Assembly: GCA_017610005.1 (NCBI GenBank)
Contig: JAFCCU010000001.1
Span: forward strand, 144,371-208,370
Direction of reading: 5' to 3'
Length of the DNA stretch: 64,000 nucleotides
Source of the DNA: Candidatus Woesearchaeota archaeon
GTDB taxonomy: Archaea > Nanobdellota > Nanobdellia > Woesearchaeales > B29-G15
The notes beneath the pieces are model-generated. The model worked only from the letters and a program-made list of their open reading frames with translations, was not told the origin of the DNA and did not search any database. Both the position numbers and the translations under genes were made by a program. Shown here piece by piece: positions 20,435 through 60,363 of the stretch (position 1 is the first letter of the stretch; every line of letters starts with the position of its first letter).

Positions 20435-20454
20435 CTAATCAACTTATAAATCCT

Positions 20455-20503: not shown

Positions 20504-20543
20504 TTAGTAACCTTTAAATAAGAATTCTGGTTAAAAATAAGTT

Positions 20544-23817: not shown

Positions 23818-23938
23818 ACTCTTTATAATTAAACCTAATATAAATCCAATTACTATTCCGAGAAAAAAATCAATTCTCAGAATAAACTCTTTATAATTAA
23901 ACCTATTATAAATCCAATAACAAGTCCTAGCAAAAAAT
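23803..23938. repeat. Tandem duplication of 68 nt x2 (about 80% identity) spanning the srp54 stop and the 3' end of the convergent gene
   Basis: Copy 1 is 23803-23870; copy 2 is 23871-23938. Each starts caattctca[a/g]aataaactctttataattaaacct... The reverse complement of copy 1 encodes a near-identical ...GFILGLIIKSLF* tail out of frame. Confidence 0.7.
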
Positions 23939-24287
23939 CAACAAATTCTCCTTTAAGTTCTTTTGGACTTGCAAAGTTTCCGACAACATTTTCTACAGGT
24001 TGTTGTGTCACTTTTGGAGCAAGTTCATTGATTCTGTGATGAACTAGTCTATAAGCTTTGTCCGCCCTATTAGCTCTAATAAGCCTATCAGAAAGAACAC
24101 TGTCGCCTACGGCACCTTTTACCCAGGAAGCAAAGTCATTTCTTGATTCAGTTACATGATGTTTGTAAATATCTGCACCCATTCCTTTTAGAACTTCTTC
24201 AAGTTCAAACAAGTTTTTTAGAACTCTTCCATCACAAATCGTAAAATTCTCATCAGGATTAACATCTCTAAGTTCCATCATAATCAC
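23877..24287 (-). CDS. Hypothetical protein with a C-terminal TM anchor; N-terminal domain paralogous to the adjacent gene
   Basis: 136 aa. Shared N-terminal pattern ...HV...NDFAxWV.... C-terminal hydrophobic FLLGLVIGFIIGLIIKSLF. Confidence 0.5.
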   Translation of the reverse strand: MIMMELRDVNPDENFTICDGRVLKNLFELEEVLKGMGADIYKHHVTESRNDFASWVKGAVGDSVLSDRLIRANRADKAYRLVHHRINELAPKVTQQPVENVVGNFASPKELKGEFVDFLLGLVIGFIIGLIIKSLF

Positions 24288-41856: not shown

Positions 41857-42933
41857 ATGCAAAAAAAGAGGGTATTAGTAGGTATTCCTATTATTCTTGC
41901 TATTTTGATAATTTTTTTAATTATTTTGCACCCATTAAAAAATAATTATTTTTTAATATTGTCTGGTATAATTTTAGTTTTTCTCTTGGGTCTTTTGATT
42001 ATAATCATCTCTAATAATAAAAAAGTAGAAAAGATGCAAGGTGAACTCAATGAAATCCAGGTCATATCAGACCATCTTTATAATGCTCTAATTGGTATAA
42101 GAAATTCAATCATGATCATGTCTAACTCAAGCACAAAGATATCTGGGTTAGCCACAACAAATGAGCAATCTATTTCACAATCAAATGAAGTTATGAATAA
42201 TCTTACAAATTCAATCAAAGAAAATTTTGATGTTGTGGGTGAAACTGCAGACAAAGTAACAGCTGCAAGACAAGAAGCAGAAAAAGGCGAAGAAAATGCT
42301 GAAAATGCTAGAATTATGATTAATCAAATAAATACAGATGTAGATAATTCAAGAAGATTGGCTGAATCTTTGACTGAAAAAAGTAAAATAATCGAAGGTA
42401 TTGTTAATTTAATTACAGATGTTTCTGAGCAAACCAAATTATTAGCATTAAATGCTGCCATAGAAGCCTCTCGTGCAGGAGACGCAGGCAAGGGATTTGA
42501 AGTAGTTGCAGATGAGATTAGAAAACTTTCTGAAGAAACTGGGGTGTCTGTAAAGAAAATATCAAAATTATTAGATGAGGTTACAACAAGTACCAACGAT
42601 GTAGTATCTTCTATGGTAAAAACCAGTCATGAAGTCGGACTCGGAACAAATGTTATTAATGGAGCATTAGAATCACTAAAGAGGATTTCAAGATCCACCT
42701 CAGAAAGCACTAAATTTGTAGATGATGTTTATTCCATGTTTGAGCAACAAATTGCTGGAACTAAGACTGTTGAACATTCTTTAACGGAGATTCATAAGAT
42801 TTCAAAGGACAATCAATTTTCAATAGATGAAGTCTCCCAAGGATTAAATAAAATTTCAGATTTAATATTGCAACTTGAAGAAAATTCAAAAAAATTAGCA
42901 GATGTAGCAAGAGAATTAAATGAAAGACGGTAA
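41857..42933 (+). CDS. Methyl-accepting chemotaxis protein (two N-terminal TM helices plus an MCP signalling domain)
   Basis: Highly conserved LLALNAAIEASRAGDAGKGFEVVADEIRKLSEET. Confidence 0.8.
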   Translation: MQKKRVLVGIPIILAILIIFLIILHPLKNNYFLILSGIILVFLLGLLIIIISNNKKVEKMQGELNEIQVISDHLYNALIGIRNSIMIMSNSSTKISGLATTNEQSISQSNEVMNNLTNSIKENFDVVGETADKVTAARQEAEKGEENAENARIMINQINTDVDNSRRLAESLTEKSKIIEGIVNLITDVSEQTKLLALNAAIEASRAGDAGKGFEVVADEIRKLSEETGVSVKKISKLLDEVTTSTNDVVSSMVKTSHEVGLGTNVINGALESLKRISRSTSESTKFVDDVYSMFEQQIAGTKTVEHSLTEIHKISKDNQFSIDEVSQGLNKISDLILQLEENSKKLADVARELNERR

Positions 42934-43615
42934 TTACTTACTTTTTGATTCTATGGGATTTACTTTTGGAGTCAAAACCAGCTCAGTTAAAGCTGTATTA
43001 AATCCAACAAAATTAACTACTCTCCCTAATTCAAAAGATTTTGTTTTAGGTTTAATGAATTTACGAGGCGAAGCAGTTTTAATATATGACTTAGCTAGAA
43101 TGCTTAAGATTGGCTCTATAATTGATCTACAGTCAGCTAAAACAATTTTAATAGAAGGAGGGGAAGCAGGAGATTTTGCAATTGCTGTTGAAACTGTTAA
43201 AAAAGTCTTTAGTCCCCAGAAATTTAAAAAAGGAGTTTTACCCGCAGGTATTCTTTCTAGCAATCTCATTAAAGGAGTAATTGAAACAACAAAAGAATCA
43301 ATTGTCCTCCTTGATAATTTAGAGAAAGGTAAAGGATTAGAGAACCTCCACTCTCTTAATTTGTTTCATGTATTCCAACCATTTATTTTTTCAACAGGGC
43401 ACCAAGCAAGAAACTTAAGAGAATTTTTACATCAATTAGAAATTATTCCAAATGAAGATTTTGATTACCACTTTAATGAAAAGACAAACCATTTTTCTCC
43501 ATGGCTAAAAAATATATTAAATGAAGAAAAATTAGCTAATTCTATAAAAATTGCAACTGATAGGCAACAAATAATAATAAAGATACAAAGAAGATTATGC
43601 ACAAAAATGTGTTAA
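42920..43615 (+). CDS. cheW: CheW-like coupling protein with a C-terminal extension of about 90 aa
   Basis: LGLMNLRGEAVLIYDLARML CheW core. Translationally coupled to the MCP. Confidence 0.65.
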   Translation: MKDGNYLLFDSMGFTFGVKTSSVKAVLNPTKLTTLPNSKDFVLGLMNLRGEAVLIYDLARMLKIGSIIDLQSAKTILIEGGEAGDFAIAVETVKKVFSPQKFKKGVLPAGILSSNLIKGVIETTKESIVLLDNLEKGKGLENLHSLNLFHVFQPFIFSTGHQARNLREFLHQLEIIPNEDFDYHFNEKTNHFSPWLKNILNEEKLANSIKIATDRQQIIIKIQRRLCTKMC

Positions 43616-44988: not shown

Positions 44989-45186
44989 TTGTTTTATAAG
45001 CAAATGCCAAGAAATTTATACAGATCATTAAAAAATCGTAGAATTGCAGGTGTTTGTGGCGGAATTGCCGAGTATCTAGGTATTGATCCTACTGTGGTTC
45101 GATTAATTTGGATTCTATCTTGCTTTTTAGGAGCAGCAGGGGTTTTAGCATATCTTATCGCTTGGGTAATTATCCCAGAACATTAA
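44989..45186 (+). CDS. PspC-domain membrane protein
   Basis: NRRIAGVCGGIAEYLGIDPTVVRLIWIL followed by a TM helix; 65 aa. Confidence 0.7.
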   Translation: MFYKQMPRNLYRSLKNRRIAGVCGGIAEYLGIDPTVVRLIWILSCFLGAAGVLAYLIAWVIIPEH

Positions 45187-45188
45187 CA

Positions 45189-45451
45189 GTCGGAAGTCTG
45201 AAGTCTGAAGTCTGAAGTCTGAAGTCTGAAGTCGGAAGTCGGAAGTCGGAAGTCGGAAGTCGGAAGTCTGAAGTCGGAAGTCGGAAGTCGGAAGTCGGAA
45301 GTCGGAAGTCGGAAGTCGGAAGTCGGAAGTCGGAAGTCGGAAGTCGGAAGTCGGAAGTCGGAAGTCTGAAGTCTGAAGTCTGAAGTCTGAAGTCTGAAGT
45401 CGGAAGTGAAAAACAATATTTACCATACCTTAAACATTAAACCCTAAACCC
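45189..45451 (-). repeat. Heptamer array module A. It has 31 tandem copies of GTCGGAA/GTCTGAA (45189-45405) plus the conserved about 45-bp flank (45406-45451, reverse complement of GGGTTTAGGGTTTAATGTTTAAGGTATGGTAAATATTGTTTTTCAC). It is inverted relative to modules B and C.
   Basis: 217 nt is exactly 31 x 7. The array starts 2 nt after the PspC stop. The flank is near-identical to the sequence at 56210 and 57436. Confidence 0.9.
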
Positions 45452-45545
45452 TATTTACCTAAATTATAAATTCTCTTTGTACTCCAGATTTAATTTTTCT
45501 CATAGAACATTTTAAATAGTACTTAAGATTTTTTATAGTCGAGAA

Positions 45546-48026
45546 ATGGGTATAAATAAAAAAGGTGTATTATTAGTTTTAATATTAGTTTTGCCTATCA
45601 TTATTATTGCTAGTTCTAAACAAGCTGTAACTCAAGACATATTTGCTGATTATAAAACAAATATTGACTTAAATACGGCCAGAAAATTTACAGTGGGAGA
45701 TTTTTCATTAGAATTAAAAAGTTTAGATAATTTTGTTAAATTAATTGGAGTTAATGAGGATAAAAGCAAATTTTTTTCTTATAGATTTGATTCTCCACCA
45801 AGTGAAACATTTGTAACTTTTGCAACAGATACAGGCGAAAAGAAAGAAGTTTTACTTTCTAATATTCCCGAAGCGAAAAATTCTGATCATTTAAAAAATG
45901 AAGCTGCAAATTCATATGTTGGAAAAATTCAAGGAGTTCTTCTCGAAGACACACGTGAAAAAGAAATTCCTGTAATAATAACCTTAGATATAGGTAAATA
46001 CATGGATTTACGACTAGAAAATTTAGAAAAGAACCAGCCATTAATGACAATTGAAGGAAGTGAAGAAGCGTTCCTTAAGTCCCGCGAAGAACTTCTTAAA
46101 GAGCTCCAAATGGATATTTTAAAAGATTCTTCTAACTTAAGATTAGTTAACGCTGTCGCAACAAAACTTACTCAATCTGAAATCAAGGAGTTAGAGGATT
46201 TAGATATTGTTACAAAAGTTAGTTTTGATAGTCCGGTACATATAGTATTGTATAATTCAACTGAAATAATAAATGCAACAAGTTTATGGCATGCAGGCAA
46301 TAACATAACTGGGAAAGGAATAACTATTGCTATTATTGACACAGGAGTAGATTATACTCATGTTGATTTAGGTGGTTGTCTTGGTGAAGATTGTAAAGTT
46401 TTAAGTGGATATGACTTTGTAAACCAAGATTCTGATCCGATAGATGACCATGGCCATGGAACTCATTGTGCTGGAACTGCTGCTGGAAATGGAACAATGT
46501 TAGGGGTTGCTCCTAATGCAAAAATTTATGCCTATAAAGTTTTAAGTGATACAGGATCTGGAAGCACATCTTGGGTGATTGGGGGAATTGAAAGAGCATT
46601 AGACCCAGATAATGATGGTGATTACTCAGATCATGCAGATGTAATCAGTTTGTCCCTGGGGGGTTCTGGAAATCCAGATGATGAATTATCTCAAGCAGTT
46701 AATGCAGCAACGGTAACTGGAGCAGTAATGGTTGTTGCTGCAGGAAACTCTGGACCTTATGCTGAAAGTATCGGAAGTCCAGGTGGTGCTGAAAAAGCAA
46801 TTACTGTGGGTGCAACTTGTAAGCCTTCCCAAATTGGGGACCATTATTATTGTGATGAAAAAATTGCAAGTTTTTCTTCACGTGGGCCAACATCTACAGG
46901 GAGCATAAAGCCAGATATTGTGGCTCCTGGTGTTTTAATTTGTGCTGCCCAATGGGGAGACGCATGGGCTAGCTCCCAATGTTTTGATAATGATCATACT
47001 GCAATATCTGGAACTTCAATGGCCACACCCCATGTCGCAGGTGCAGCAGCATTATTGCTTCAAAGTCATGTAAATTGGACACCTGAACAAGTTAAATCAG
47101 CTTTAATGACTACAAGCACTAATCTCGGTTATAACCCAAACTTTCAAGGGACTGGTGAAATAAATGTTTTATTGGCTGAAAATGCATCTTTTTCAACTCA
47201 ACCACAAAGTTTGGGATTTGGCTTTGTAAACAATAACGATTTTGCAACTGAGTTTAAAATTATTAACCTAAAAAATACCCCAGTAACTTTAACATTAAGT
47301 GTTGCAGATGTTATAGATGAAGAGTCAAATACATTTTCTTTTGCAAGCTTAAATACAACTTCGATAAATCTTCCAGGTGGAAATTCAACTAACATTACTC
47401 TTGAGATTAATATAACTGGCAATGCAGAAGGCAACTTTTTTGGTATGATTAATATAACCTATGATAATTATGTTGGAAGAATGCCATTTTCATTTGTCAA
47501 GCTTTCCCAATTAACCATTACTGTGAATGGATCTCAAGCAGTTTATCCTGATTTATTGATACATGATGAAAATTTAACAATTAGGCGTGGTGTTTTCCAA
47601 GGGATAGCGTTTGAAGGAGATACTTATACATTTCAAATACCTTCTGGGAATTATACTGTCTACGCAGTTGGTGATCAAGAAGACTTAAATTATGAATATT
47701 TGCTAATGGGGATTGTTGAAGTTCCAATAAATTCTCATATTAATAAGACATTAAATGTATCAAATGCAAGGGAGTTTACAGTTGGAGCTGAGTCTTTGAC
47801 AGGAGAACCGTTAAAATTGTATAAATGGGAAAAGGGATTTGTTTCATATTATTTAGGAGAAACATTAAGCTATTCTTTTGTAGATCCAGAATTTGGAAAT
47901 AGAACCATTAGAATTTCAAATAAACCAGATAATCAAGTAACTACAGACATCATAATCAATTACCATGGGGTACCTACAGATTCAGCTTACACCTCAGGAG
48001 GAAACAGTAGATCAATTGGAACATAA
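45546..48026 (+). CDS. Secreted subtilisin-like serine protease (S8 family) with a long C-terminal beta-rich region
   Basis: Signal peptide. Asp/His/Ser triad motifs AIIDTGVDYTHVDLGG, HGTHCAGTAAG and GTSMATPHVAG. 826 aa. Confidence 0.85.
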   Translation: MGINKKGVLLVLILVLPIIIIASSKQAVTQDIFADYKTNIDLNTARKFTVGDFSLELKSLDNFVKLIGVNEDKSKFFSYRFDSPPSETFVTFATDTGEKKEVLLSNIPEAKNSDHLKNEAANSYVGKIQGVLLEDTREKEIPVIITLDIGKYMDLRLENLEKNQPLMTIEGSEEAFLKSREELLKELQMDILKDSSNLRLVNAVATKLTQSEIKELEDLDIVTKVSFDSPVHIVLYNSTEIINATSLWHAGNNITGKGITIAIIDTGVDYTHVDLGGCLGEDCKVLSGYDFVNQDSDPIDDHGHGTHCAGTAAGNGTMLGVAPNAKIYAYKVLSDTGSGSTSWVIGGIERALDPDNDGDYSDHADVISLSLGGSGNPDDELSQAVNAATVTGAVMVVAAGNSGPYAESIGSPGGAEKAITVGATCKPSQIGDHYYCDEKIASFSSRGPTSTGSIKPDIVAPGVLICAAQWGDAWASSQCFDNDHTAISGTSMATPHVAGAAALLLQSHVNWTPEQVKSALMTTSTNLGYNPNFQGTGEINVLLAENASFSTQPQSLGFGFVNNNDFATEFKIINLKNTPVTLTLSVADVIDEESNTFSFASLNTTSINLPGGNSTNITLEINITGNAEGNFFGMINITYDNYVGRMPFSFVKLSQLTITVNGSQAVYPDLLIHDENLTIRRGVFQGIAFEGDTYTFQIPSGNYTVYAVGDQEDLNYEYLLMGIVEVPINSHINKTLNVSNAREFTVGAESLTGEPLKLYKWEKGFVSYYLGETLSYSFVDPEFGNRTIRISNKPDNQVTTDIIINYHGVPTDSAYTSGGNSRSIGT

Positions 48027-51000
48027 AACCTTACTTACAATTGGATTAGTATTATTTATGTTAGTATTAACTGGTTGCCCTTCTGAAGATAAAGCATACT
48101 CCATTGCAGAAGACCATTATCTTATAGGTTTTATTTTACATAATGTAGATGATTCAACTAATGAAATCCTTAATTATTCTGTTGATGATTTAGCAGTTTA
48201 TAATTATTCATACAATTATCCAGGAGGATTGCCCAGGACATATTCTCAAGTATTATTTTGGGTGGCCCCAATACACGAAAACTCTTCAGCAGGTGCAGGG
48301 TCAAGTTGGATTGATATAAATGTTCCAGTATCAAAAACATATTATTTGTATGGAGAAAATCCAGTTCCACAAAGCTATAGATCAAATTGGTCATTCTCAA
48401 ATTACTTACATGTTAATTACCTAAAATCTGAAGAATCAAGTGTTGAATTTGCTTATGAAGTTATGCAAGTTGAACACTATTTATCAGAAAGTGCATTTTA
48501 TGGAATAACCCCAATACCTGGAGTTTACAAACAAATAAGTTTTGGTGGCGCACCGTACTTGCCAACAAGTATTACAATTAATGACAGTAATTTATTATTA
48601 AATAGTCATCTTCTAAGGGGGAGTAATGGGAATTCTTATATTTCAAGAAGGACCAAACAGGATGTATGGAACTCAGAAACTGGAGAAATTAATGTTTCTC
48701 TTTTGGAACCCAACTTTCAAATTTATAAAGAAGGAAGCTTAGATGAATTTGGAAACTTAACTGATGAAGGTTATAATTGGGATAAAACAAAATTAAATTA
48801 TGACCTGACCAATGGAAATTACACTGTTATTGTAAATTTTTCTTCTTATTACCCTGTTTGGAACCACACAATGATTACAAGTTCCTTTGAATACCCTTCA
48901 ATTGACCCAGAACCACCAGTTTTAACTCAAATAAATATATCTCCAAGATTCCAATATAATGAAAATATTAATGTTTCATTAAATTTTACTGATGATTCAA
49001 CAATTAGCAATGTTTCAATTTTTTATTCTACTGATCTTGATGACACATGGGTAGAGACAAACGTTGATGAAAATTATACAACAAATTTTTCTATCCCTAA
49101 TGGTGGAGAAGAAGAAATAAATTTAAAATTTGAAGCAATCGATTTTTATAATAACTCCATCAATTGGGTTGTAAAACCTGTCTCTTTACTATCAATATTG
49201 CCAATATTTGATTTTGATTGTGAAGAAAGCTCAGCCACCAGAGGTGAATTAATCTCTTGCAGTGGTCAATGTATAACTGACCTCGGTGGAAACTGCAGTG
49301 GGCTTAGGTTTGCATATTATTTAAATGATCAATTTGTTAGTTATGATAGAAGTGAAAAATATGATTCATGGGCTGGGACAGAAGAAGGAGAATTTTCTAC
49401 TGAAATAACTATCCCTTATACAATAACAGGTGATAGTCTAAATATTTCTTTAATTTTCCCAGGGACTGGTATTTTTCAAGATGTCACAGAAACAGTTGAA
49501 ATTGACCTTGTTATGCACGAATATGATCTAGCTGTAAACAACTTAACTTGTCTTAGTCCAGAAATTGATGCAATTAATGATATTACAGCAGAAGTTTTCA
49601 ACAACGGGGATTATGAGTCTACACAAGTAAATGTAAGTTTAATAATTGATCAAGTTTTAGTTAACTCCACAATCATTTCTACAGTATCCAGTTTAGAAAG
49701 CGAATCTGTTTCATTTAATTGGAGCCCAACAGAATCAGGAATTTATAATATTACAATCTATGTAACACCAGAAGATGATGATGGAGATTTAACAAATAAC
49801 TACGCTGAAACAGAAGTTAGTCTGGGGGCAGACATTAAAGGATATATCTCATTATCCTCGTGGAGTAATGCTATTAATGAAAGTGTAGAAATAAATATTG
49901 ACTACGGCAACAATAAAGATATTAATGTCACAGATATTTCTGCTGTTTTCTTTGACTTTTATGATTATGATTCAACTTATCCAGATTATGGAAAACAAGG
50001 TAATCTATACCTAAATGATACTTTATATTATGTCAATGCTACACTCCGCGGAAATTTGGTTGATTTCAACATAACTTATAATGATACTAGTTATTATTAT
50101 ACGCTTCATGAAGGCCAAAGTATATTACTTAATACTGGTGCTCGATTTGATTTTAAATATAAATATTCAGATTATTGTGCGTTGATGATTGGATTTGCGG
50201 AAAAAACTGAATTTGAGCTTGAAAATTTAACAAGTTATGACGAAAAAGAAAAGAAGTTTAATTGGACCCCCACAGTATTAGGCTACCATCGCTTAAAGCT
50301 TTTTATTAATACCTCAAGTGATTCATATTGGGCAAATAATAATGATTACACTGGAGGTTATGTAAAATCATATAATCCAGACTTAATAGTTATGGTAGAT
50401 AGTAATTACTATTTAGAGTACAATGCTCCTTCTAATCTTGAAATTGATATTTATAATGATGGGTATGTGGATTCTGGCCAAATTTCAGGGTTATTTACTA
50501 TTTATTATCCTTATGTTGACGAATATATCTCTTATGAATCTACTGATATTATTGAGTTTAATGGAAATAACTATTCAATTTATGTAAATGGGAGTAGTAA
50601 TTTAGTTTTTTACAATGTAACTTATGATGGGACTTCAGAACTGTTCAATTTAACTTATGGAGAGAATATTACGTTAGGGGATGGAACAGTCCTTGACTCA
50701 GTTTATATGAGTGATTATGGCACAACATCCTTATTAGGGATTCCTAACTCTACAGATGTGTCTTATTCAAGTATTCAAGCAGGGTTCTCTAGATTAGAAT
50801 ATGAAACATGGATACCCGTAGAATTAGGAGATTATTCATTAAAGATTAAACTGGATGATGCAAATGATGCAGACCCAAGTGATAACTTTGATTTTTATGA
50901 AGTTACTGCAAAAGTTCCAGGTCCTGATTTAAGTTTAGGTTTTTATAACTATGAAGATGCCTTTGTAAATCAAGAGTATTCACTAGGAATAAGTCTTTAT

Positions 51001-54000
51001 AATTATGGTACAACTGAAGGAATCAATGCAAATCTTTCCATATTAGACTTGTATAGTTATGAATCTAAATCTGGTTACTTTGCAAATTCAAGAATATTTG
51101 AATTCAATGGAACTGAATTTAATGTAACGCTAAATTCAAGTTCAAATGAAAGTTACCTTGCAGGAAAATTAAAATTTGATGACACAATATTAAATATTTC
51201 GGGGTATGAATGGGGAGATTATTTTGAGGTTGGAGAGGGATTATTCTTTGCTATAGACCGATGTTATACAGATAAATGTTATTTTTTCATTGGCAATGGG
51301 ACAATAACCTCATACACGATTGCAAATATTAGCACTAACACTTATAAGGAATTCAACTTCACTCCAACAGTGATTGGTGAACATGAGATATTCGTTAGTT
51401 TAAATGTAAGTGACGAAGTTGATTATTCCAATAATTATTATAATGATAATTTAGAAGTAATAAAACCTGGGCCAAATCTTTATACTTACTTAGGTGGGGA
51501 TTACTTTATACCTGTAAATTCTTCAACCAATGTTTCTCTTAATTACAAAAATATTGGCACAGCACCCAGTAATTGTTCTTATAAGGTGTATGCTCTTGAA
51601 GAATATAACACTTCATATCTCTATTGTGGGGAAAGCGGAACATTTTATTATAATTCTGAAACTTATTATATTAATTCAACAAATTATAATTCAACCTTTA
51701 AAATTTTTAATATAACTCATAATGGTACAAAATATAATTACATGCTTTCAAGGTATCAGGGAGTAGAACTTCCTAATGGAGATTATTTCTTTAGCGATTC
51801 TGGGGGGAGTTCTAGTTGTTATCCTGGATTTGGAAAAGGCAATTTCTCTTCTGGAAGAATTAACATAGGTCCAACTAATAACTATAATACTGCAATCATT
51901 AGTTATACTCCATCAACGCTTGGACAGATAAAACTGCTTTCATATGCAAATTGTTCTGATGATACTGATTATTCGAACAATGGAGCATATTTTACTTCAT
52001 ATGCCCTTCGTCCAGGTGCAAATGGCGAACCTTATTTCTATATTTCTTCATATACTCAGGCTACGACCTTATCGCTTAGATTAAATAATGTGGGAACAAC
52101 TCAGATTATTAATGGTTCACTGTTCTTATATGAAAATGAAGTTTTGATTTATAATATCTCGGGGTTAACTGTGGATAATGATGACACTTCTTATAATTAC
52201 TATGATTACATTCCTACTACCCTTGGAACAACTACCTTAACTTTAGTTGCAAATGTTCCAGATGATATTAATCAAAGTAATAATATTTACACTAGAAAAT
52301 CTTACACCTATCAAGTTGTCAATAGAAGTTTTACCACAAATGATGAAAATGGATCTGTAAATGATGATCAGATAATTAATCTTTTAAATGATGATCTTGA
52401 TAATGTAGCAAATAAATCAAAAGCAACTTATTATTTCCCTGAAGACAACATAGTTATTCTTAATAATGACACTTCAAATTATTTAACTTCTGTAGAGTAT
52501 ATTCTAGCTAATACGACTAATAATCTTACTGCTCAAACACAATTCTATGAAAACTTTGGAAATAAATATTTTATATATGCAACAAATCCTGATTATAGTT
52601 TTAATAATACAAATTGGGCAATTGAGCATAATGACTATCTCTCTTTTGTCCATTCATTGGAAGGATTTGTTGTTTATGGTTGTAATGATTGGAATTTTTC
52701 ATCGAGAAATTGCTCTTGGAATTATGTTTCTAATGATTTAAATGTTTATTCTGATAGTTTTGAATTTTACGATTACACTGGAAAATACACTACATTTGCC
52801 CTTGCAAATGACACCGACTTAGACAGTGTTCCAACTGATGAAGATAACTGCCCCTACATATTTAATAGAAGGCAAACTGATGTTGACAACGATGGACAGG
52901 GAGATAAATGCGACTCCGATGCAGATGATGATGGAATAAATGATTCTGAAGATACAATTATTGGAAAAGCTGCTTCAATTAATTCAAATGTGGCGTTAAA
53001 CATAACAATAAATGGGAGTTTAAATATTAATGGAACTAAAAATAAAACTCAGCTTGTTGAAATCAAAAAAGAAAATATAACTATTGTTAAATTTAATCAC
53101 AATTTTAGTAGTAAAAGGCTTCAACTAACAAATATCACTATTCGTGTACAAAGCGATACAAGCCCCCTAGGGTATCTAGTTATTCAAGGCATCAATTTGG
53201 TAAATGATACAAAAACAGTCACTGTCGACCGTATAGGTGGCTCTAATAGTGTTTGTGTTAAAGATGCACTTGTAACAAACATATCAGAGATGTCAGATGA
53301 TTGCAATGAGACATATGAGACAGAACTAAGCTGCATTACAGGCCTTGAACAATCAGGATACAACTGCTCTATAAACGGCTCTACTTTTATTATATCAGGA
53401 TTAAATCATTCAGCTTTAAAAGAAATTGCTTTACCTGCTCCAACTACCACAACTACTATTAGTTCCTCCAGTGGAAGCTCAAGTGGAGGGACTGGAATGG
53501 GAATTGCACCGCTTTGTTTGCCTGATCCTCAATGCGGGTCTTGGGGTAATTGCTTTGAAAACGAAACTCAATATAGGGAGTGTTTTGATGCTTGTCGCCA
53601 AAAAGCGTCTGTTGAAAAGCAAAGTTGCACATATATTATGCCCACTACAACAACTTCGATTGAGCCAGTAATAGAAACTCCCGCTTTAATAGAAACTTGT
53701 GATGATGGTTATTGGAATCAAGATGAAGAAGGAATTGATTGTGGAGGGGTTTGTGAACCTTGCAAGGTATTTAAAGATACAATTAAAGCATTACCTATTG
53801 CAATAGGTTTAGGGGTCTTGTTAGGTGGTATTTTGGCCTTTTTATGGGTTAAAAAACATAGTTCCACTCCTGCTTATCATGAAAAAGAAAATGAATTAGC
53901 TGACTTTATTAAACAAGCAAAAGGTGCATTACATAATAAAGATATTGAAACTGCTAGGCAAATGTATGGGAAAATTAAAACAGCTTATTCAAAACTCCCT

Positions 54001-54063
54001 GAACAAGAAAAAGAACTATTCTATGATCACATTATGGAAGTTTATAACAGGTTATCTAAGTGA
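47965..54063 (+). CDS. Giant (about 2000 aa) N-glycosylation-rich cell-surface protein with thrombospondin-type-3-like Ca-binding repeats, a membrane-proximal Cys-rich module, and a C-terminal TM anchor with cytoplasmic tail; candidate S-layer protein or adhesin. The true start is uncertain.
   Basis: Hydrophobic N-terminal segment LLTIGLVLFMLVLTGC with a lipobox-like LTGC. Dozens of NxS/T sequons. DEDNCPY...DVDNDGQGDKCDSDADDDGINDSEDT. CLPDPQCGSWGNC...CGGVCEPC. ALPIAIGLGVLLGGILAFLWV then KKHS. Confidence 0.75.
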   Translation: MGYLQIQLTPQEETVDQLEHKTLLTIGLVLFMLVLTGCPSEDKAYSIAEDHYLIGFILHNVDDSTNEILNYSVDDLAVYNYSYNYPGGLPRTYSQVLFWVAPIHENSSAGAGSSWIDINVPVSKTYYLYGENPVPQSYRSNWSFSNYLHVNYLKSEESSVEFAYEVMQVEHYLSESAFYGITPIPGVYKQISFGGAPYLPTSITINDSNLLLNSHLLRGSNGNSYISRRTKQDVWNSETGEINVSLLEPNFQIYKEGSLDEFGNLTDEGYNWDKTKLNYDLTNGNYTVIVNFSSYYPVWNHTMITSSFEYPSIDPEPPVLTQINISPRFQYNENINVSLNFTDDSTISNVSIFYSTDLDDTWVETNVDENYTTNFSIPNGGEEEINLKFEAIDFYNNSINWVVKPVSLLSILPIFDFDCEESSATRGELISCSGQCITDLGGNCSGLRFAYYLNDQFVSYDRSEKYDSWAGTEEGEFSTEITIPYTITGDSLNISLIFPGTGIFQDVTETVEIDLVMHEYDLAVNNLTCLSPEIDAINDITAEVFNNGDYESTQVNVSLIIDQVLVNSTIISTVSSLESESVSFNWSPTESGIYNITIYVTPEDDDGDLTNNYAETEVSLGADIKGYISLSSWSNAINESVEINIDYGNNKDINVTDISAVFFDFYDYDSTYPDYGKQGNLYLNDTLYYVNATLRGNLVDFNITYNDTSYYYTLHEGQSILLNTGARFDFKYKYSDYCALMIGFAEKTEFELENLTSYDEKEKKFNWTPTVLGYHRLKLFINTSSDSYWANNNDYTGGYVKSYNPDLIVMVDSNYYLEYNAPSNLEIDIYNDGYVDSGQISGLFTIYYPYVDEYISYESTDIIEFNGNNYSIYVNGSSNLVFYNVTYDGTSELFNLTYGENITLGDGTVLDSVYMSDYGTTSLLGIPNSTDVSYSSIQAGFSRLEYETWIPVELGDYSLKIKLDDANDADPSDNFDFYEVTAKVPGPDLSLGFYNYEDAFVNQEYSLGISLYNYGTTEGINANLSILDLYSYESKSGYFANSRIFEFNGTEFNVTLNSSSNESYLAGKLKFDDTILNISGYEWGDYFEVGEGLFFAIDRCYTDKCYFFIGNGTITSYTIANISTNTYKEFNFTPTVIGEHEIFVSLNVSDEVDYSNNYYNDNLEVIKPGPNLYTYLGGDYFIPVNSSTNVSLNYKNIGTAPSNCSYKVYALEEYNTSYLYCGESGTFYYNSETYYINSTNYNSTFKIFNITHNGTKYNYMLSRYQGVELPNGDYFFSDSGGSSSCYPGFGKGNFSSGRINIGPTNNYNTAIISYTPSTLGQIKLLSYANCSDDTDYSNNGAYFTSYALRPGANGEPYFYISSYTQATTLSLRLNNVGTTQIINGSLFLYENEVLIYNISGLTVDNDDTSYNYYDYIPTTLGTTTLTLVANVPDDINQSNNIYTRKSYTYQVVNRSFTTNDENGSVNDDQIINLLNDDLDNVANKSKATYYFPEDNIVILNNDTSNYLTSVEYILANTTNNLTAQTQFYENFGNKYFIYATNPDYSFNNTNWAIEHNDYLSFVHSLEGFVVYGCNDWNFSSRNCSWNYVSNDLNVYSDSFEFYDYTGKYTTFALANDTDLDSVPTDEDNCPYIFNRRQTDVDNDGQGDKCDSDADDDGINDSEDTIIGKAASINSNVALNITINGSLNINGTKNKTQLVEIKKENITIVKFNHNFSSKRLQLTNITIRVQSDTSPLGYLVIQGINLVNDTKTVTVDRIGGSNSVCVKDALVTNISEMSDDCNETYETELSCITGLEQSGYNCSINGSTFIISGLNHSALKEIALPAPTTTTTISSSSGSSSGGTGMGIAPLCLPDPQCGSWGNCFENETQYRECFDACRQKASVEKQSCTYIMPTTTTSIEPVIETPALIETCDDGYWNQDEEGIDCGGVCEPCKVFKDTIKALPIAIGLGVLLGGILAFLWVKKHSSTPAYHEKENELADFIKQAKGALHNKDIETARQMYGKIKTAYSKLPEQEKELFYDHIMEVYNRLSK

Positions 54064-54658: not shown

Positions 54659-54781
54659 CCAACACTTTTATAAACGATCAACTCCTTTTCATCAACATGA
54701 ACAAAGAAAGTGATTGTTTTCATTGTTGTTTTAACTAGTTTTCAGTCTCCTAAAACCAATATTCGATATATACTTTCTCCA

Positions 54782-54809
54782 GACTGCAGACTCCAAACTC
54801 CAGATTGTT
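54782..54809. repeat. Degenerate heptamer array (CAGACTG CAGACTC CAAACTC CAGATTG)
   Basis: 7-nt periodicity, the same family as the large arrays; upstream of tRNA-His. Confidence 0.4.
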
Positions 54810-54825: not shown

Positions 54826-54833
54826 TTTATATT
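54826..54833 (+). promoter_or_regulatory. TATA-box-like element (TTTATATT) about 27 nt upstream of tRNA-His
   Basis: AAACCTTTATATT resembles an archaeal BRE plus TATA box; spacing is appropriate for a TSS near 54857-54859. Confidence 0.35.
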
Positions 54834-54858: not shown

Positions 54859-54931
54859 GGCAGCTGTAGTGTAACGGTTAGCATGGGACCCTGTGGAGGT
54901 CCAGGAGCGGGTTCGACTCCCGCCATTTGCC
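54859..54931 (+). tRNA. tRNA-His (anticodon GTG at 54893-54895) with an encoded G-1
   Basis: Manual cloverleaf. G-1:C73. Acceptor GCAGCTG/CATTTGC with one C:U mismatch. D stem GTGT/GCAT, loop AACGGTTA. Anticodon stem GGACC/GGTCC, loop CTGTGGA. T stem GCGGG/CCCGC, loop TTCGACT. Sits directly upstream of hisS. Confidence 0.8.
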
Positions 54932-54940
54932 CTTAAAATC

Positions 54941-56209
54941 ATGAAAACTGTAAAAGGAACCAGGGATTTTCTACCAAGTGAACAGTTAATAAGAGAGGAT
55001 ATTATGCAATCCTTGAGGGTTGTATTTCAATCTTTTGGATTTAGACCTCTTGATACCCCTGCACTCGAACTTTTTGAAACACTTTCCGCTAAATATGCTG
55101 GTGGTTCTGAAATTTTAAAAGAAACTTTCTCATTAAAAGGTAGAAGTGATACACCATTAGGCTTGAGATATGACTTAACAGTGCCCCTCGCGCGTGTAAT
55201 TGCTTCTAATCCACAATTAAAATTTCCCTTTAAACGCTATCAAATAAGTAAGGTTTGGCGCGATGGGCCAGTAGGCATGGGAAGATACAGAGAATTTTGG
55301 CAATGTGATGTTGACACAATTGGTGCTAAATCAATGAAAGCTGACGCTGAAATACTTGCAATTGCTTATGAAGTTTTTAAAAAATTAGAATGCAAAGTTG
55401 TAATAAACGTAAACAATAGAAAACTTCTTAATGGAATATTAGAAAAATTAGAAATTTCTAATACAGCCGATGCAATCTCAATTATTGATAAATTTAAAAA
55501 ATTAAACAAAAAGGGCCTTTTAAAAGAATTTAAAGCTAAAGGCATAAGTTCTGTTACTGCTGAAAAAATATTAAACTTCTTTGAGAAAATTCCAACTAAT
55601 GCACTTTCTTTTCTCTCAAAAGAAATAACAAGTGAAGAGGGTCAAGAAGGGCTCCAAGAATTAAAAGAGCTAAGTAAATATGCAAAAGCTTATGGCATCA
55701 AAGTCAATATAACTCCGGAACTTGCAAGAGGATTAAGCTATTATACTTCAACCATTTTTGAAATATTTGCACCAAAATTCAATTTCTCTTTAGCAGGTGG
55801 CGGCCGCTATAATAAATTAATTGGAAGTTTTTTAAATGCAAAACAAGACTATCCTGCAGTCGGAATCTCTTTTGGGCTTGATAGAATTAGAGATATTTTA
55901 GCTGAAAAAACCACAAAAATCGAAACAAAAACCCAAATATTCATAATCCCTATTGGAACAGAACTCGAAGCAATAGTCCTTACAAAAAAACTTAGAGAAG
56001 TAGGAATTAATGTTGAAACTGATATTATGGGCAAAGGCATAACAAAAAACCTAAATTATGCAAATTCCCTTGGAATCCCTTATGTTTTATTCTTAGGAGA
56101 AAAAGAAATTAAAGCAGGTAAATATAAACTCAAAAACATGACTTCTGGTAAAGAAACCTTAATCACAGAAAAAACCTTAATAAAACAACTTTTTTCTCCA
56201 GACTGTTAG
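54941..56209 (+). CDS. hisS: Histidyl-tRNA synthetase. Start at the ATG at 54941; the track's 54893 start overlaps the tRNA.
   Basis: Class II motifs (GTRDFLP, LRYDLTVPLAR, FRYERPQ-like RYREFWQCDVD, GGGRYN) and a C-terminal anticodon-binding domain. Confidence 0.9.
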   Translation: MKTVKGTRDFLPSEQLIREDIMQSLRVVFQSFGFRPLDTPALELFETLSAKYAGGSEILKETFSLKGRSDTPLGLRYDLTVPLARVIASNPQLKFPFKRYQISKVWRDGPVGMGRYREFWQCDVDTIGAKSMKADAEILAIAYEVFKKLECKVVINVNNRKLLNGILEKLEISNTADAISIIDKFKKLNKKGLLKEFKAKGISSVTAEKILNFFEKIPTNALSFLSKEITSEEGQEGLQELKELSKYAKAYGIKVNITPELARGLSYYTSTIFEIFAPKFNFSLAGGGRYNKLIGSFLNAKQDYPAVGISFGLDRIRDILAEKTTKIETKTQIFIIPIGTELEAIVLTKKLREVGINVETDIMGKGITKNLNYANSLGIPYVLFLGEKEIKAGKYKLKNMTSGKETLITEKTLIKQLFSPDC

Positions 56210-56346
56210 AGGGTTTAGGGTTTAAGGTATGGTAAATATTGTTTTTCACTTCAGACTTCAGACTTCAGACTTCAGACTTCAGACTTCAGACTTCAGACTT
56301 CAGACTTCAGACTTCAGACTTCAGACTTCAGACTTCAGACTTCAGA
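56210..56346 (+). repeat. Heptamer array module B. It has the conserved flank GAGGGTTTAGGGTTTAAGGTATGGTAAATATTGTTTTTCAC followed by (CTTCAGA)x14.
   Basis: The flank starts immediately after the hisS TAG stop; 98 nt of perfect 7-mers. Direct orientation relative to module C. Confidence 0.9.
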
Positions 56347-56449
56347 CTGTTAAATATTTCTTCTCCTTAAATCAGCTGCACGTTCATAGTAAACTCTTGC
56401 TTTTTCAAATCGCCCCTTCTCATACATTATTTCTCCTTTCCTGTGGTAT

Positions 56450-56857
56450 CTAGCTGCTTGCAATAAATACAACTAAACCTAAAAGAATACTAGACGAAGC
56501 AGTTAAGGGTTTAGAAATCTGTCCAGTTATAGAAACACAGTTTTCATCAATTTCATTATTACAATTATCATCAACATCATTACAATATTCACCATGAGGA
56601 AGATTTTCAGTGCATTGACAATGAGTATATTCTATTTCTATTTCTCCTCTCAAATTATCAATTATTCCATCACAGTTATCATCTTGATTATTACATATTT
56701 CTTTAGCCCCTGGAAATACACTATTTGAATTGTCATCACAGTCCGGAGTAGAAAATTGACAGCCACCATTAACCCCAAATCCATCATTATCTGTATCAAC
56801 ACAAACAGCAGATACTAACGGAATCATTAATAGAATTAACAAAACAAAATACTTCAT
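56450..56857 (-). CDS. Secreted Cys-rich protein with three CxDxDxDG-type (MopE-like putative metal-binding) repeats and a C-terminal hydrophobic anchor
   Basis: Signal peptide MKYFVLLILLMIPLVSA. Repeats CVDTDNDGFG, CNNQDDNCDGIID and CNDVDDNCNNEIDENC. C-terminal ILLGLVVFIASS. Confidence 0.55.
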   Translation of the reverse strand: MKYFVLLILLMIPLVSAVCVDTDNDGFGVNGGCQFSTPDCDDNSNSVFPGAKEICNNQDDNCDGIIDNLRGEIEIEYTHCQCTENLPHGEYCNDVDDNCNNEIDENCVSITGQISKPLTASSSILLGLVVFIASS

Positions 56858-56949
56858 ATTTTATTTTCTAGTGTTTTAATGTTTATATAATTTCGGTATT
56901 ATGTGATAGTTACAACAATTTATAAATATCAAGCTCAAAATTACCTTCT

Positions 56950-57435
56950 ATGAAAAAAGGACAGATCATTTCTCAAGTATTTGTTTATATGTTAGTGCTA
57001 TTTGTTGTAGGAATTGTTGCTGTGATTGGCACAATGGGTGTAGGAAATCTACTTGAAAAACAGTGTTTAGCAGATATTTCGAAATTTAAAGGAGATTTTG
57101 CAAAAAATGTTTATGATACCAAAGATTTAGGAGAAGCAAAAATTTATTCTCATAGGATGCCTTGTTCTTTTAATCATATCTGTTTTTTTGATCCCATCGC
57201 ACCTATTGGAACACCTAAATATCAATCTTCTTTTATTCAAGAATATTCAGATTCAAATAATGTATTCTTAGTTAAAGCCCCACAACCAATACGTTCAGAT
57301 ATGGTAGACGCTTTTAATACCTCAAAAATATCTTTAACCACTAGATACAAATGTTTTAATGCAACTAGCGGAAGATTGCGTGTACTTTTAGAAGGAAATG
57401 GCAAACGGGGAACAAAAGTCTTAGTACCAAATTGA
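56950..57435 (+). CDS. Archaeal type IV pilin-like protein (class III signal peptide)
   Basis: MKKG|QIISQVFVYMLVLFVVGIVAVIG has the KG/Q prepilin-peptidase site with a conserved +1 Gln and hydrophobic helix; 161 aa. Confidence 0.5.
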   Translation: MKKGQIISQVFVYMLVLFVVGIVAVIGTMGVGNLLEKQCLADISKFKGDFAKNVYDTKDLGEAKIYSHRMPCSFNHICFFDPIAPIGTPKYQSSFIQEYSDSNNVFLVKAPQPIRSDMVDAFNTSKISLTTRYKCFNATSGRLRVLLEGNGKRGTKVLVPN

Positions 57436-57561
57436 GGGTTTAAGGTATGGTAAATATTGTTTTAGACTTTCGACTTTAGACTTCAGACTTCAGACTTCAG
57501 ACTTCAGACTTCAGACTTCAGACTTCAGACTTCAGACTTCAGACTTCAGACTTCAGACTCC
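57436..57561 (+). repeat. Heptamer array module C. It has the flank GGGTTTAAGGTATGGTAAATATTGTTTT followed by (AGACTTY/CGACTTT)x14, exactly filling the gap between the pilin-like stop and the dnaJ stop.
   Basis: The flank begins 1 nt after the TGA at 57433-57435. The array ends overlapping the dnaJ stop codon (57561-57563). Confidence 0.9.
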
Positions 57562-58616
57562 TAACTCTTAAAACTTCTCTCTAAATCAATAAGAATATTT
57601 TTCTGATTGCGATTAAGCTTTTTAGGAATTTTTATACTAATTGTGATTAATTGATCTCCCCTTCCGCCACCATGTACTCTCCTTAATCCTTGGCCCCGGA
57701 GTTTAAACAAGCTTCCGTCTTGTGTGCCTGTTGGAATTTTTAATTCAGCTTCACCATTTATCGTTGGAATTGTTATCTTCCCACCTATTGCAGCAGTTAC
57801 AAAATTAATTGGCTTCTCGCAAAGCAAATCCATCCCCTGTCGCTCAAAAAAGTTATGCGGTAAAACATTAATGTATACAAATAAGTCTCCTGCAGGGCCT
57901 CCTCTCTCTCCTGCCTCGCCTTTTCCTGGGACCCTTAATCTATTTCCTGATTCAACACCTGCGGGCAAGTCTACTTCGATTTCTTCTTCAATTCTAGTTT
58001 TGCCTTTTCCCTTACATTTTTCGCAAGGTTTAACAATGATTTTACCGGTTCCACCACACCTTCTACAAGGGGCGTTGGTTGCAAATATTCCAAAAGGAGT
58101 TCTTCTAGTTGTTTGAACAACACCAGATCCGCCACAAATTGTACACGATTGGATTCCATCTGGCTCCCCTCCAGTGCCATGACACCTATCGCAAGTTGAA
58201 TTTCTATTTAAAGAGATAACCTTAGTTATCCCTTCTGCAACATCTTCTAAAGAAATTGAAACCTCAATTTGAATATTTCTTCCCCTTCTTGAAGTTGGCC
58301 TCCGACTGCCTCCTCCTCCGAAAAAACTTGAAAATATATCTCCTAAATCAAAGTCTTGGTATCCTCCCTGGTCAAATCCCCTAAATCCTGAAGAACCTTG
58401 AGAATCATTATTGCCAAATCTATCATAGTGATCTTTAGTTTTAGGATCAGAAAGGACTTTATAGGCTTCATTAATCTCTTTAAACTTCTCTTCAGAGGCC
58501 TTATCTCCTCTATTTAAATCAGGATGATGCTTTTTAGCTAAAGTTCTATAAGCTTTTTTAATTTCTTCAAGACTTGCGCCCTTACTTAATCCAAGTTTTT
58601 CGTAGTAATCTGGCAT
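57561..58616 (-). CDS. dnaJ: Chaperone DnaJ (Hsp40)
   Basis: J domain with HPD (KKHHPDLN), G/F-rich region, four CxxCxGxG zinc-finger repeats, C-terminal domain. Confidence 0.9.
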   Translation of the reverse strand: MPDYYEKLGLSKGASLEEIKKAYRTLAKKHHPDLNRGDKASEEKFKEINEAYKVLSDPKTKDHYDRFGNNDSQGSSGFRGFDQGGYQDFDLGDIFSSFFGGGGSRRPTSRRGRNIQIEVSISLEDVAEGITKVISLNRNSTCDRCHGTGGEPDGIQSCTICGGSGVVQTTRRTPFGIFATNAPCRRCGGTGKIIVKPCEKCKGKGKTRIEEEIEVDLPAGVESGNRLRVPGKGEAGERGGPAGDLFVYINVLPHNFFERQGMDLLCEKPINFVTAAIGGKITIPTINGEAELKIPTGTQDGSLFKLRGQGLRRVHGGGRGDQLITISIKIPKKLNRNQKNILIDLERSFKS

Positions 58617-60363
58617 TATTTCTTCTTTTTATCTTTCACTTTATATTCTGCATCAATTGGCTCATCTTCTTTTTTCTTCTTTTTTCCTTCTGTTTCTTTT
58701 GCTTTTTCTTTGGAGGCCTCTTCTTTTTGATAAAGTTTAGTTGACATTTCTTGAGAGAGCTTAGTTAACTCTTCAACTTTTTGTTTGACTTTATCAATAT
58801 CCTTTTTATCAGCTTCAAGTAGCTTTTTAAGGTCATTATTCACTCCAGAGATTAGCTCAGCTTCTTTTTTATCTACCTTGTCCTTTAATTCAACAAGCAT
58901 TTTTTCAGTTGAGTAAACCATGGCATTTGCCTGATTAATTAAATCAACTTCAGCTTTTTTCTTAGCGTCAGAAGCTTCATACTTTTTAGCGTCTTCGGTC
59001 ATCTTTTTAATATCTTCATCACTTAAACTTTCTTTTCCGGTAATTTTAATTGACTGTTCCTTGCCTGTTCCTAAATCTTTTGCTGAAACATGTACAATTC
59101 CGTTTGAATCAATGTCAAATCCTACTTCAATTTGCTCCTTGAAAAACTCGAATGCTAACTGCTGGCTGGTTATCATCTGCAGTAGAAAATGTTTGAGCTT
59201 TCTTAATAGGAATTGTAGTATTTCTATCTATAACTTTAGTAAATACTCCTCCCAAGGTTTCAATACCAAGAGAAAGTGGAGTGACATCAAGAAGCAATAC
59301 ATCTTTAATCTCTCCCTTTAAGTAGAGCAATGGCTTCATCAGGATTAATGGATTTTTCTCCTTCTTTACCAGTTATATCTTTAATTAGCTTCTCAACTGC
59401 AGGAATTCTTGTAGATCCTCCAACCAAAATCGCTTGACCAAGTGGTTTTTCATCTAATTTACCATCTTCGAGAGCCTTTTTTGTTGGGCCCTCAAGTCTC
59501 TTTAAAATATCACTAATTAACTCTTCAAATTGAGCCCGAGTGATCTCTTTTTGTAAGTGTTTTGGCCCAGCGTCAGTTGCTGTAATAAATGGAAGGTTAA
59601 TTTGTGTTTTTGTAGCAGTAGAAAGCTCTTTTTTAGCATTTTCTGCAGCTTCTTTTAACCTTTGATAGGCTTGTTTATCTGCTCTTAAATCAACACCGTG
59701 GCCTTTTTTAAAGTCATCAGCTAAAAAATCGACAATTAATTCATCAATGTCATCTCCACCTAAGTGGTTATCTCCTGCTGTTGAAATTACTTCAAATACT
59801 CCATCGCCTAATTCTAAAACAGAAACATCAAAAGTTCCTCCTCCAAAATCAAAAACTAGGATTTTTCCAACCTTCTTTTTATCAAGACCATATGCTAATG
59901 CAGCAGCAGTAGGTTCATTAACTATTCTTAATACATTTAATCCAGCAATTTTTCCTGCATCTTTTGTAGCTTGCCGTTGAGCATCTTCAAAGTAAGCTGG
60001 AACAGTTATTACCGCATCAGTTACTGCAGTTCCCAAATAAGCTTCAGCATCTCGCTTAAGCTTTTGTAAAATCATTGCTGAAATTTGTTGTGGTGAATAA
60101 TCCTTATTATTAACTAACACTGAAAAGTCACGCTCACCCATATGTCTTTTAATACTTCTTACAGAATGCTCAGGATCCATTATAGCCTGATTTCGAGCAA
60201 CTTTACCCACTACTACTTCATCGCCTTTGATTTGTACGACAGAAGGTGTAGTTCTTTCTCCTTCACTATTAGTGATAATTGTTGGTTTTCCTCCTTCAAC
60301 TACTGCAACAGCAGAGAAAGTTGTACCAAGATCGATTCCGATTACTTTTGAAAATTCAGTCAT
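58616..60363 (-). pseudogene. dnaK: Chaperone DnaK (Hsp70) interrupted by two frameshifts. ORF pieces are 59305..60363 (NBD), 59127..59339 (linker/SBD start) and 58616..59176 (SBD/lid).
   Basis: N-piece has [14 protein letters not shown]. Middle piece has [16 protein letters not shown]. Last piece has GIVHVSAKDLGTGKEQ. The summed length is about 608 aa. Breaks lie at T/A homopolymers and may be assembly indels. Confidence 0.8.

Follow-up and report, generated by a model that had tools for sequence, protein, structure and literature searches.

Do repeats that bracket a pair of surface-protein genes mark a cassette that can be exchanged, or do they lie where insertions into a compact genome are tolerated? 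The question is raised by a 64-kb stretch of contig JAFCCU010000001.1 from a Candidatus Woesearchaeota archaeon (64,000 nucleotides [nt] in all; "the window" below means this whole stretch), which contains three repeat modules, A, B, and C, each made of a short leader and a tandem array of the heptamer CAGACTT (AGACTTC in another phase). Modules B and C have the same orientation and bracket exactly two divergent genes, one for a MopE-like Cys-rich secreted protein and one for a pilin-like protein, while module A is an inverted copy 10.8 kb upstream (Table 1). An earlier note, made from the sequence alone, took this arrangement for a repeat-bounded variable cassette of two surface genes. Our comparison with related genomes leads to a different conclusion: the modules probably belong to a lineage-specific heptameric simple sequence repeat (SSR) family, (CAGACTT)n, that landed secondarily beside an old gene pair, and they do not delimit a swappable cassette.

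The evidence that carries this conclusion is the gene order of relatives. From homologue searches and context look-ups we compared seven related loci (L122, L125, L126, L140, L142, L143, and L144), all of which have the same order and orientation and no repeats; the alternative arrangements that the earlier note expected in related genomes did not appear. In L143, where hisS is 62% identical, hisS (plus strand) is followed by a gene for a secreted protein with a transmembrane (TM) segment (minus), a pilin-like gene (plus), and dnaJ (minus), with the stops overlapping by 4 nt at each of the two convergent junctions, and its secreted protein and that of the window have a conserved cytoplasmic tail in common (…YHRKGE.AYEK…YYE.A.D.RRRN). 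L140, with a pilin-like protein 65% identical to ours, carries a MopE-like gene (minus, 49% identical), the pilin-like gene (plus), and dnaJ (minus), again with a 4-nt overlap, and in L142 (pilin-like protein 76% identical) the pilin-like stop overlaps the 3' end of dnaJ by 8 nt. Across the relatives the overlap between dnaJ and the pilin-like gene ranges from 4 to 11 nt, and the identity of the orthologues is 38 to 76% for the pilin-like protein and 49% for the MopE-like protein.

The pilin-like gene also lies between hisS and dnaJ in L142 and in the distant relatives L122, L125, L126, and L144, the last four of which carry tRNA-His, hisS, the pilin-like gene, dnaJ, dnaK, a CxxCxxCC gene, grpE, a helix-turn-helix (HTH) gene, and sepF. 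What varies is the interval from hisS to the pilin-like gene, a slot that holds 0, 1, 2, or 4 minus-strand genes across L122, L125, L126, L143, and L144. In the distant relatives the genes in this slot are unrelated and have no signal peptides (0 in L122, 4 in L125, 2 in L126, and 0 in L144), and the slot varies there without repeats and without surface genes. The slot genes of L125 and L126 form an unannotated, cytoplasmic-looking family; the gene upstream of hisS in L144 was checked as a possible orthologue of the window's Nudix gene and was ruled out. No heptamer array of any kind was found in 12 related loci (about 140 kb, orthologous junctions included). The order hisS, secreted gene (minus), pilin-like gene (plus), dnaJ (minus) thus appears to be ancestral and the repeats to be recent additions in this lineage; because the relatives keep the gene order without arrays and with overlapping stops, modules B and C would have entered the two stop-stop junctions later.

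The modules themselves are real, and in this the earlier note holds: tandem-repeat (TRF) and pattern searches of the window agree on all three and on their orientations. The 14-mer AGACTTCAGACTTC, allowing up to 2 mismatches, has 66 matches in the window against 0.5 expected, and the 28-nt leader has 3 against 0 expected. Modules B and C have this 28-nt leader core in common, followed by about 14 AGACTTC units each. The leader of B consists of two AGGGTTT units, a unique stretch of 21 nt, and a T5 run (56242-56246); that of C has a single GGGTTT unit, and the first three units of its array are the variants TAGACTT, TCGACTT, and TAGACTT. The leader of A differs by 2 mismatches and one extra heptamer, and its array has CGACTTC units in the middle and AGACTTC blocks at either end. 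The three modules are homologous from (A)GGGTTT, where the similarity sets in abruptly, through the last array unit, and their flanks are unrelated. The leaders of A and B contain a T5 run and stops in all three forward frames, and that of C has one forward frame open and a T4 run. A heptad-repeat peptide encoded by the array, MVNIVFHF(RLQTSDF)n, was considered and is ruled out by an in-frame TAG in module C. Because all three carry the common leader, A, B, and C would derive from one composite module (leader of 28 to 37 nt plus array) that was copied locally.

Each module fits tightly against its neighbors. Module B is the entire spacer from the hisS stop (56207-56209) to the stop of the conserved tail of the MopE-like gene (56350-56352), and module C is the entire spacer from the pilin-like stop (57433-57435) to the dnaJ stop (57561-57563); in both, the leader starts directly after the co-directional stop. 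The array end of module A abuts the stop codon of a PspC gene (45184-45186), and its leader faces the promoter of an S8 protease gene. All three leader-bearing modules thus have the array 0 to 1 nt from the stop codon of a convergent gene. Half of the window's convergent gene pairs overlap (5 of 10, by 4 to 29 nt), and, of the convergent spacers in it, those at B and C rank with the largest.

A possible footprint of insertion is visible at B, where a 10-nt direct duplication, CAGACTGTTA, has one copy on either side. Deletion of 56209-56352 yields a sequence containing CCAGACTGTTAAATATTT, in which TAA, the hisS stop, and TTA, the plus-strand form of the tail stop, merge into a TTAA overlap resembling the CTAA of L143. 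Insertion at B would have duplicated the overlapped nucleotides, leaving both reading frames with their stops. Of the 10 duplicated bases, 6 belong to the repeat unit. The duplication may stem from microhomology-guided insertion, may be a true target duplication, or may be left over from a second module. The flanking repeats differ from module to module, being perfect over 10 nt at B, imperfect over 5 nt at C (CCAAA/CCTAA), and absent at A. We found no terminal inverted repeats common to the module ends, and a miniature inverted-repeat transposable element (MITE) with such repeats is unsupported. The bracketing would then reflect where insertions are tolerated and not a cassette boundary, because B and C probably entered these stop-stop junctions secondarily.

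The earlier note listed three modules; the window has three more arrays, all leaderless, which brings the family to six arrays in 64 kb with 5, 7, 31, 4 (degenerate), 14, and 14 units. All six lie in noncoding DNA, which makes up about 9% of this compact window, and together they amount to about 8.5 bp per kb; the archaeal mean for all short tandem repeats (STRs) together is about 1 bp per kb (PMC12699852). Every leaderless array (3 of 3) lies upstream of a TATA-like box, from which its end is 10 to 19 nt away, and is oriented toward the downstream gene: array 1 ends 12 to 14 nt upstream of the TTTATATA box (19469-19476, minus strand) of a 619-amino-acid (aa) nucleotidyltransferase gene, array 2 ends 10 nt upstream of the TTTAAATA box (20513-20520) of thrS (ATG at 20544), and array 6 ends 19 nt upstream of the TTTATATT box (54826-54833) of tRNA-His (54860). 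No surface gene is among the three, and because these arrays adjoin non-surface genes, the repeat family is not specific to the surface-gene locus. The earlier note had counted against its own proposal a single arrangement across many reads or strains, combined with repeats at unrelated loci and no genome-wide association with surface genes; half of this was found, in the arrays at the thrS, nucleotidyltransferase, and tRNA-His loci, and the single arrangement is seen in part, as synteny that does not vary at genus/family depth.

Table 1. Repeat arrays, flanking duplication, and genes of the B-C locus (positions in the window)
Feature	Position	Strand	Description
Module B	56210-56349	+	Leader AGGGTTTAGGGTTTAAGGTATGGTAAATATTGTTTT 56210-56245, then (CAGACTT)~14 to 56349
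Module C	57436-57560	+ (as B)	Leader GGGTTTAAGGTATGGTAAATATTGTTTT 57436-57463, then ~14 units to 57560
Module A	45188-45453	-	Inverted copy, 10.8 kb upstream; array of ~31 units 45188-45407; leader 45408-45453
Leaderless array 1	19489-19523	-	~5 units, AGACTTC/AAACTTC
Leaderless array 2	20454-20504	+	7 perfect units
Degenerate leaderless array 6	54776-54806	+	CCAGACT GCAGACT CCAAACT CCAGATT
10-nt direct duplication CAGACTGTTA, left copy	56199-56208	+	Last codons of hisS
10-nt direct duplication CAGACTGTTA, right copy	56343-56352	+	Last array unit and stop of MopE-like tail
hisS (422 aa)	54941-56209	+	Conserved left neighbor; preceded by tRNA-His 54860-54932
MopE-like Cys-rich secreted protein gene	56350-56857	-	ORF 56450-56857 (135 aa), truncated
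Conserved divergent-promoter motif ATTATGTGATAGTTACAACAATTTATAAATA (31 nt)	56898-56928	+	Common to L140, L142, and L143
Pilin-like protein gene (161 aa)	56950-57435	+	N-terminus MKKGQIISQVFVYMLVLFVVG
dnaJ	57561-58616	-	Conserved right neighbor

Taken together, these observations are consistent with a (CAGACTT)n family that would have spread to at least six intergenic sites of this genome and whose arrays would persist only where coding sequence is left undisturbed. We infer that the arrays grow and shrink most likely by replication slippage and, likewise, that the composite module was copied by some local route. Two of its copies, B and C, would have been inserted into two convergent junctions with formerly overlapping stops, which happen to flank an ancient divergent pair. 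Homologous recombination between identical repeats of 125 bp is physically possible, and the repeats would be latent substrates for it, with no indication of use. Several points weigh against this reading. The evidence comes from 64 kb of one genome, and neither a transposase nor terminal inverted repeats were found that would account for the spread of heptamer and leader to separate sites, while the target duplications differ from copy to copy. The arrays also fall into two clean positional classes, the leaderless ones before a TATA box (3 of 3) and the leader-bearing ones at a convergent stop (3 of 3), a degree of order that exceeds what a purely neutral element predicts and that hints at function. 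Finally, the B and C arrays (about 100 bp) may have been collapsed by short-read assembly.

The positional order is what keeps alive the idea, unlikely in our view, that the heptad arrays are cis-regulatory protein-binding sites, the leaderless ones serving as operator or activator near the TFB recognition element (BRE) and TATA box and the leader-bearing ones as 3'-end insulators or terminators. The placement of arrays 1, 2, and 6 shortly before a TATA-like box, facing the gene, is what such sites would show, and the T5 run in the leader directly after the hisS stop matches an archaeal-type termination signal. The omega repressor of plasmid pSM19035, which binds contiguous heptads, provides an analogy. 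Precedents exist in the Haemophilus hmw1A and hmw2A promoters, where in the account given in PMC2651432 the copy number of a heptanucleotide SSR modulates expression, and in Nostoc, where heptamer repeats affect the regulation of recF and recO (bioRxiv 10.1101/2022.06.06.494920). However, no candidate binding protein was identified among the larger open reading frames (ORFs) of the window, and the relatives express the same genes without arrays and with overlapping 3' ends. The promoter-proximal cases number only three, copy number runs from 4 to 31 with no evident logic, and the T-run of module C is only T4.

A bolder reading, which we regard as rather doubtful, would make the leader-plus-heptamer module an undescribed archaeal intergenic element: either a mobile, non-autonomous unit that enters convergent junctions with overlapping stops and duplicates the overlap, or the cis part of a heptad-recognizing regulator network that marks promoters with leaderless arrays and 3' boundaries with leader-bearing ones in a streamlined DPANN genome.

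It is improbable that the arrays act at the RNA level, either as 3' untranslated region (UTR) elements, (GAAGUCU)n, of the PspC, MopE-like, and dnaJ transcripts or as an unstructured antisense or sponge RNA started from a TATA-like box in the leader. Such a role would suit the start of the array 0 to 1 nt past the stop of the opposite-strand gene in all three leader-bearing modules, although this abutment is equally expected if arrays just fill noncoding space. The forward-strand RNA of the modules contains markedly less structure than its shuffled controls (z = +4.5 and +3.3), which fits a platform for single-strand binding, and recognition by RNA-binding proteins has been proposed for TAACTGA repeats (MacGregor 2015, PMC4679880). 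The leaderless arrays, however, precede the TATA boxes and hence would not be cotranscribed with their genes. Structured or known RNA was considered separately and is ruled out by the positive z-scores and by an Rfam search of the modules that returned only subthreshold chance matches.

We consider it still more improbable that the modules form a recombination switch, in which exchange between B and C would excise or duplicate the surface cassette and exchange between A and B would invert the 10.8-kb segment, with surface variation as the outcome. Some features would suit such a switch. As direct repeats, B and C agree at every base of the 28-nt leader and along most of the array of about 100 bp; A is inverted, and the enclosed genes code for secreted or surface proteins. 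The segment between A and B has the gene content that the earlier note gave it (S8 protease, a 2032-aa CARDB protein, DUF1653, Nudix, tRNA-His, and hisS), and the S8 protease/giant CARDB pair with which it starts has differing contexts in other genomes. Yet the order and orientation across B and C are the ancestral ones of the seven repeat-free loci, the pilin-like gene stands beside dnaJ everywhere, so that losing it would hardly amount to a harmless switch, and neither rearrangement would switch a promoter. Heptamer arrays also occur at the thrS, tRNA-His, and nucleotidyltransferase loci, as described above. Pfam scans of essentially all window ORFs of at least 90 aa detected no recombinase (invertase or integrase) or transposase. 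Nor is there a trace of exchange among the modules, since the CGACTTC units are confined to A and no chimeric arrays exist. The variable cassette of the earlier note is therefore not borne out, the pair being ancestral and syntenic in array-free relatives.

Misassembly, in which mis-joins at identical tandem arrays would make the bracketing unreal, is very unlikely: on either side of both B and C, the gene order agrees with that of independent relatives recovered from other samples, the flanking ORFs run cleanly to their stops, and long ORFs (2032, 826, and 803 aa) are intact, even though arrays of about 100 bp are near typical read or k-mer length and the nearby dnaK and MopE-like genes have frameshifts or deletions.

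The two enclosed genes fit the earlier description of both products as secreted or surface proteins. The MopE-like ORF has a signal peptide at its N terminus and matches Pfam Cu-binding_MopE (PF11617) with 36.7 bits against a cut-off of 27 (E = 5e-9), and its product is a putative metal-binding motif protein. The reading frame closes after a hydrophobic segment of reduced length; the conserved tetratricopeptide repeat (TPR)-like cytoplasmic tail, which ends in YHRKGEIMYEKGRFEKARVYYERAADLRRRNI and the stop, lies out of frame at 56350-56466. Compared with the continuous orthologues of L140 and L143, the gene is frameshifted and has lost about 30 aa from its TM/linker region. The pilin-like protein begins with a class-III-signal-like (prepilin-type) motif, MKKG followed by QIISQ and then a hydrophobic helix (MKKG, then QIISQVFVYMLVLFVVGIVAVIG), that is kept in four aligned orthologues (KG, KS, or KA and then Q) and also in L140, L143, and L144. 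It has no Pfam or NCBIfam match, and its AlphaFold model, a long N-terminal helix and strands, is unreliable (predicted local distance difference test [pLDDT] score of 43); its assignment as a putative secreted or surface protein comes from the N-terminal motif. The motif between the two genes, ATTATGTGATAGTTACAACAATTTATAAATA, is conserved despite G+C differences of 30 to 50% and probably comprises an operator and a TATA box.

Downstream of dnaJ, dnaK (58616-60363, minus strand) is split into ORFs 58616-59176 and 59305-60363 by frame breaks, apparently with two internal deletions around 59130-59330, and is either a pseudogene or the site of a local sequence error; relatives have an intact dnaK of 605 to 623 aa in the same dnaJ-dnaK-CxxCxxCC-grpE cluster. 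Together with the frameshift and deletion of the MopE-like gene, this fragmentation suggests local gene decay or local sequence errors. On the other side, the S8 protease and the giant CARDB protein that follows it (45546-54063) form a conserved two-gene unit that recurs in L145 (10001-17519) and L146 (10001-18396) and stands in different genomic contexts in relatives; it is this pair, rather than the B-C pair, that looks like a relocatable surface module.

A 205-aa ORF (19680-20297, plus strand) lies between the inverted arrays 1 and 2 and had no Pfam, NCBIfam, or PDB sequence match; a PDB sequence search with the 619-aa nucleotidyltransferase also gave no match. Just after the 205-aa ORF, at 20298-20445 (plus strand), stand two tandem units of about 65 nt, G+C rich in a genome of 33% G+C, each with two hairpins and with a T-run at the end (RNA fold z = -8.3; no Rfam match). 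Tandem terminators or a small RNA not yet described are candidate explanations.

The window as a whole is about 33% G+C and encodes ribosomal protein S8e, and the best named matches of its hisS are Woesearchaeota or Nanoarchaeota metagenome-assembled genomes (MAGs); it therefore comes from a DPANN-type archaeal genome. Elsewhere in it, a thiamine pyrophosphate (TPP)-enzyme ORF resembling the beta subunit of pyruvate:ferredoxin oxidoreductase (292-2319, plus strand) contains an intein with a LAGLIDADG homing-endonuclease domain, a 68-bp unit is present twice (90% identical) at 23803-23941 across the SRP54 3' end and the convergent spacer, and 41857-43615 (plus strand) encodes a methyl-accepting chemotaxis signaling-domain protein and a CheW-DUF5752 fusion.

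Neither the heptamer nor its wide occurrence points to an element common to distant genomes. A scan of 185,579 genomes for (MGACTTC)3 recovered more than 120 unrelated bacterial loci, mostly noncoding and often beside blocks of other heptamers. In viral contigs, four tandem copies of AGACTTC were found at 3 loci versus 4, 0, and 5 loci for heptamers of the same composition, and a special cross-phylum status of AGACTTC is ruled out because control heptamers are about equally frequent; its wide occurrence thus reflects the general abundance of heptameric SSRs, which are abundant in prokaryotes at large (PMC4692102). Many bacterial loci, L004, L009, L016, L029, L066, and L112 among them, have blocks of different heptamers side by side, such as CGACTTC beside TCACTTC, TGGCTTC, or CGACTAA, and a phage contig (L128, 5900-6010 and its minus strand) carries inverted GAAGTCT/AGACTTC arrays for which long hairpins are possible. 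The leader gave one chance match in metagenomes, inside a bacterial coding gene, and one match in viral contigs that we also judged to be chance; within the collections searched it appears to be unique to this genome.

Compared with known systems, the locus recalls several and coincides with none of the mobile or switching ones. Invertons and shufflons, such as the fim switch and the capsule invertons of Bacteroides, combine short specific inverted repeats with a dedicated site-specific recombinase and a switched promoter or coding segment; direct or inverted repeats close to surface-protein genes are present here too, but none of those hallmarks was found in the window, and gene order is invariant in relatives. 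MITEs, Correia elements, and RPE/REP-type elements are miniature non-autonomous insertion elements tolerated at gene ends. Like them, our modules are short, noncoding, and multicopy, sit at gene boundaries with ORFs intact, and include a possible 10-nt target duplication at B; unlike them, they show no terminal inverted repeats or hairpins, no consistent target duplication, and no cognate transposase, and the module body is mostly tandem heptamer. For omega/ParR-type heptad operator or centromere arrays, contiguous heptads beside promoters and a cognate small DNA-binding protein would be expected; here heptads adjoin TATA boxes at three loci, and no cognate protein was identified among the ORFs scanned. 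The hmw1A and hmw2A genes of Haemophilus influenzae have a 7-bp array of 13 to 38 units about 100 bp upstream of surface-protein genes that varies by slippage (Dawid et al. 1999, as given in PMC2651432). Both systems have a 7-bp tandem array near surface-protein genes, but according to the same account the hmw array sits between promoter and gene and tunes expression, whereas the surface genes here have modules B and C at their 3' ends and not in their joint promoter.

The closest match is the bacterial heptameric SSRs, whose families include the cyanobacterial short tandemly repeated repetitive (STRR) sequences, GGGAATC in Xanthomonas, and GGGGA(T/C)T in Nostoc (Rehm et al. 2015, PMC4692102), as well as the TAACTGA repeats of Beggiatoaceae, Cyanobacteria, and Bacteroidetes (MacGregor 2015, PMC4679880). 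All four features that define membership in such a family are found here, namely at least three units in tandem, dispersal, intergenic location, and variability between relatives, the last being seen as absence from the 12 related loci. In both cases a single 7-nt unit is arranged head to tail at many intergenic sites of one genome, with variable copy number, in both orientations including inverted pairs, often near gene starts or ends, absent or different in relatives, and with no known mobilization mechanism. The differences are that the genome here is the compact one of a DPANN-type archaeon, that the unit is CAGACTT, that three copies have a nonrepetitive leader in common, that two copies sit exactly between formerly overlapping convergent stops, and that the promoter-proximal copies stand before archaeal TATA boxes and not over the ribosome-binding site. 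For annotation, the comparison carries a warning that repeats beside surface genes alone are no sign of a phase-variable cassette. Dispersed heptamer repeats have been known for decades in cyanobacteria, Xanthomonas, and Beggiatoaceae, and their spread and role are still unexplained; even a compact, reduced archaeal genome tolerates them, and the present locus, with overlapping stops in relatives versus a module of 125 to 140 bp between them here, offers a clean before-and-after comparison that could help show how heptamer arrays are seeded.

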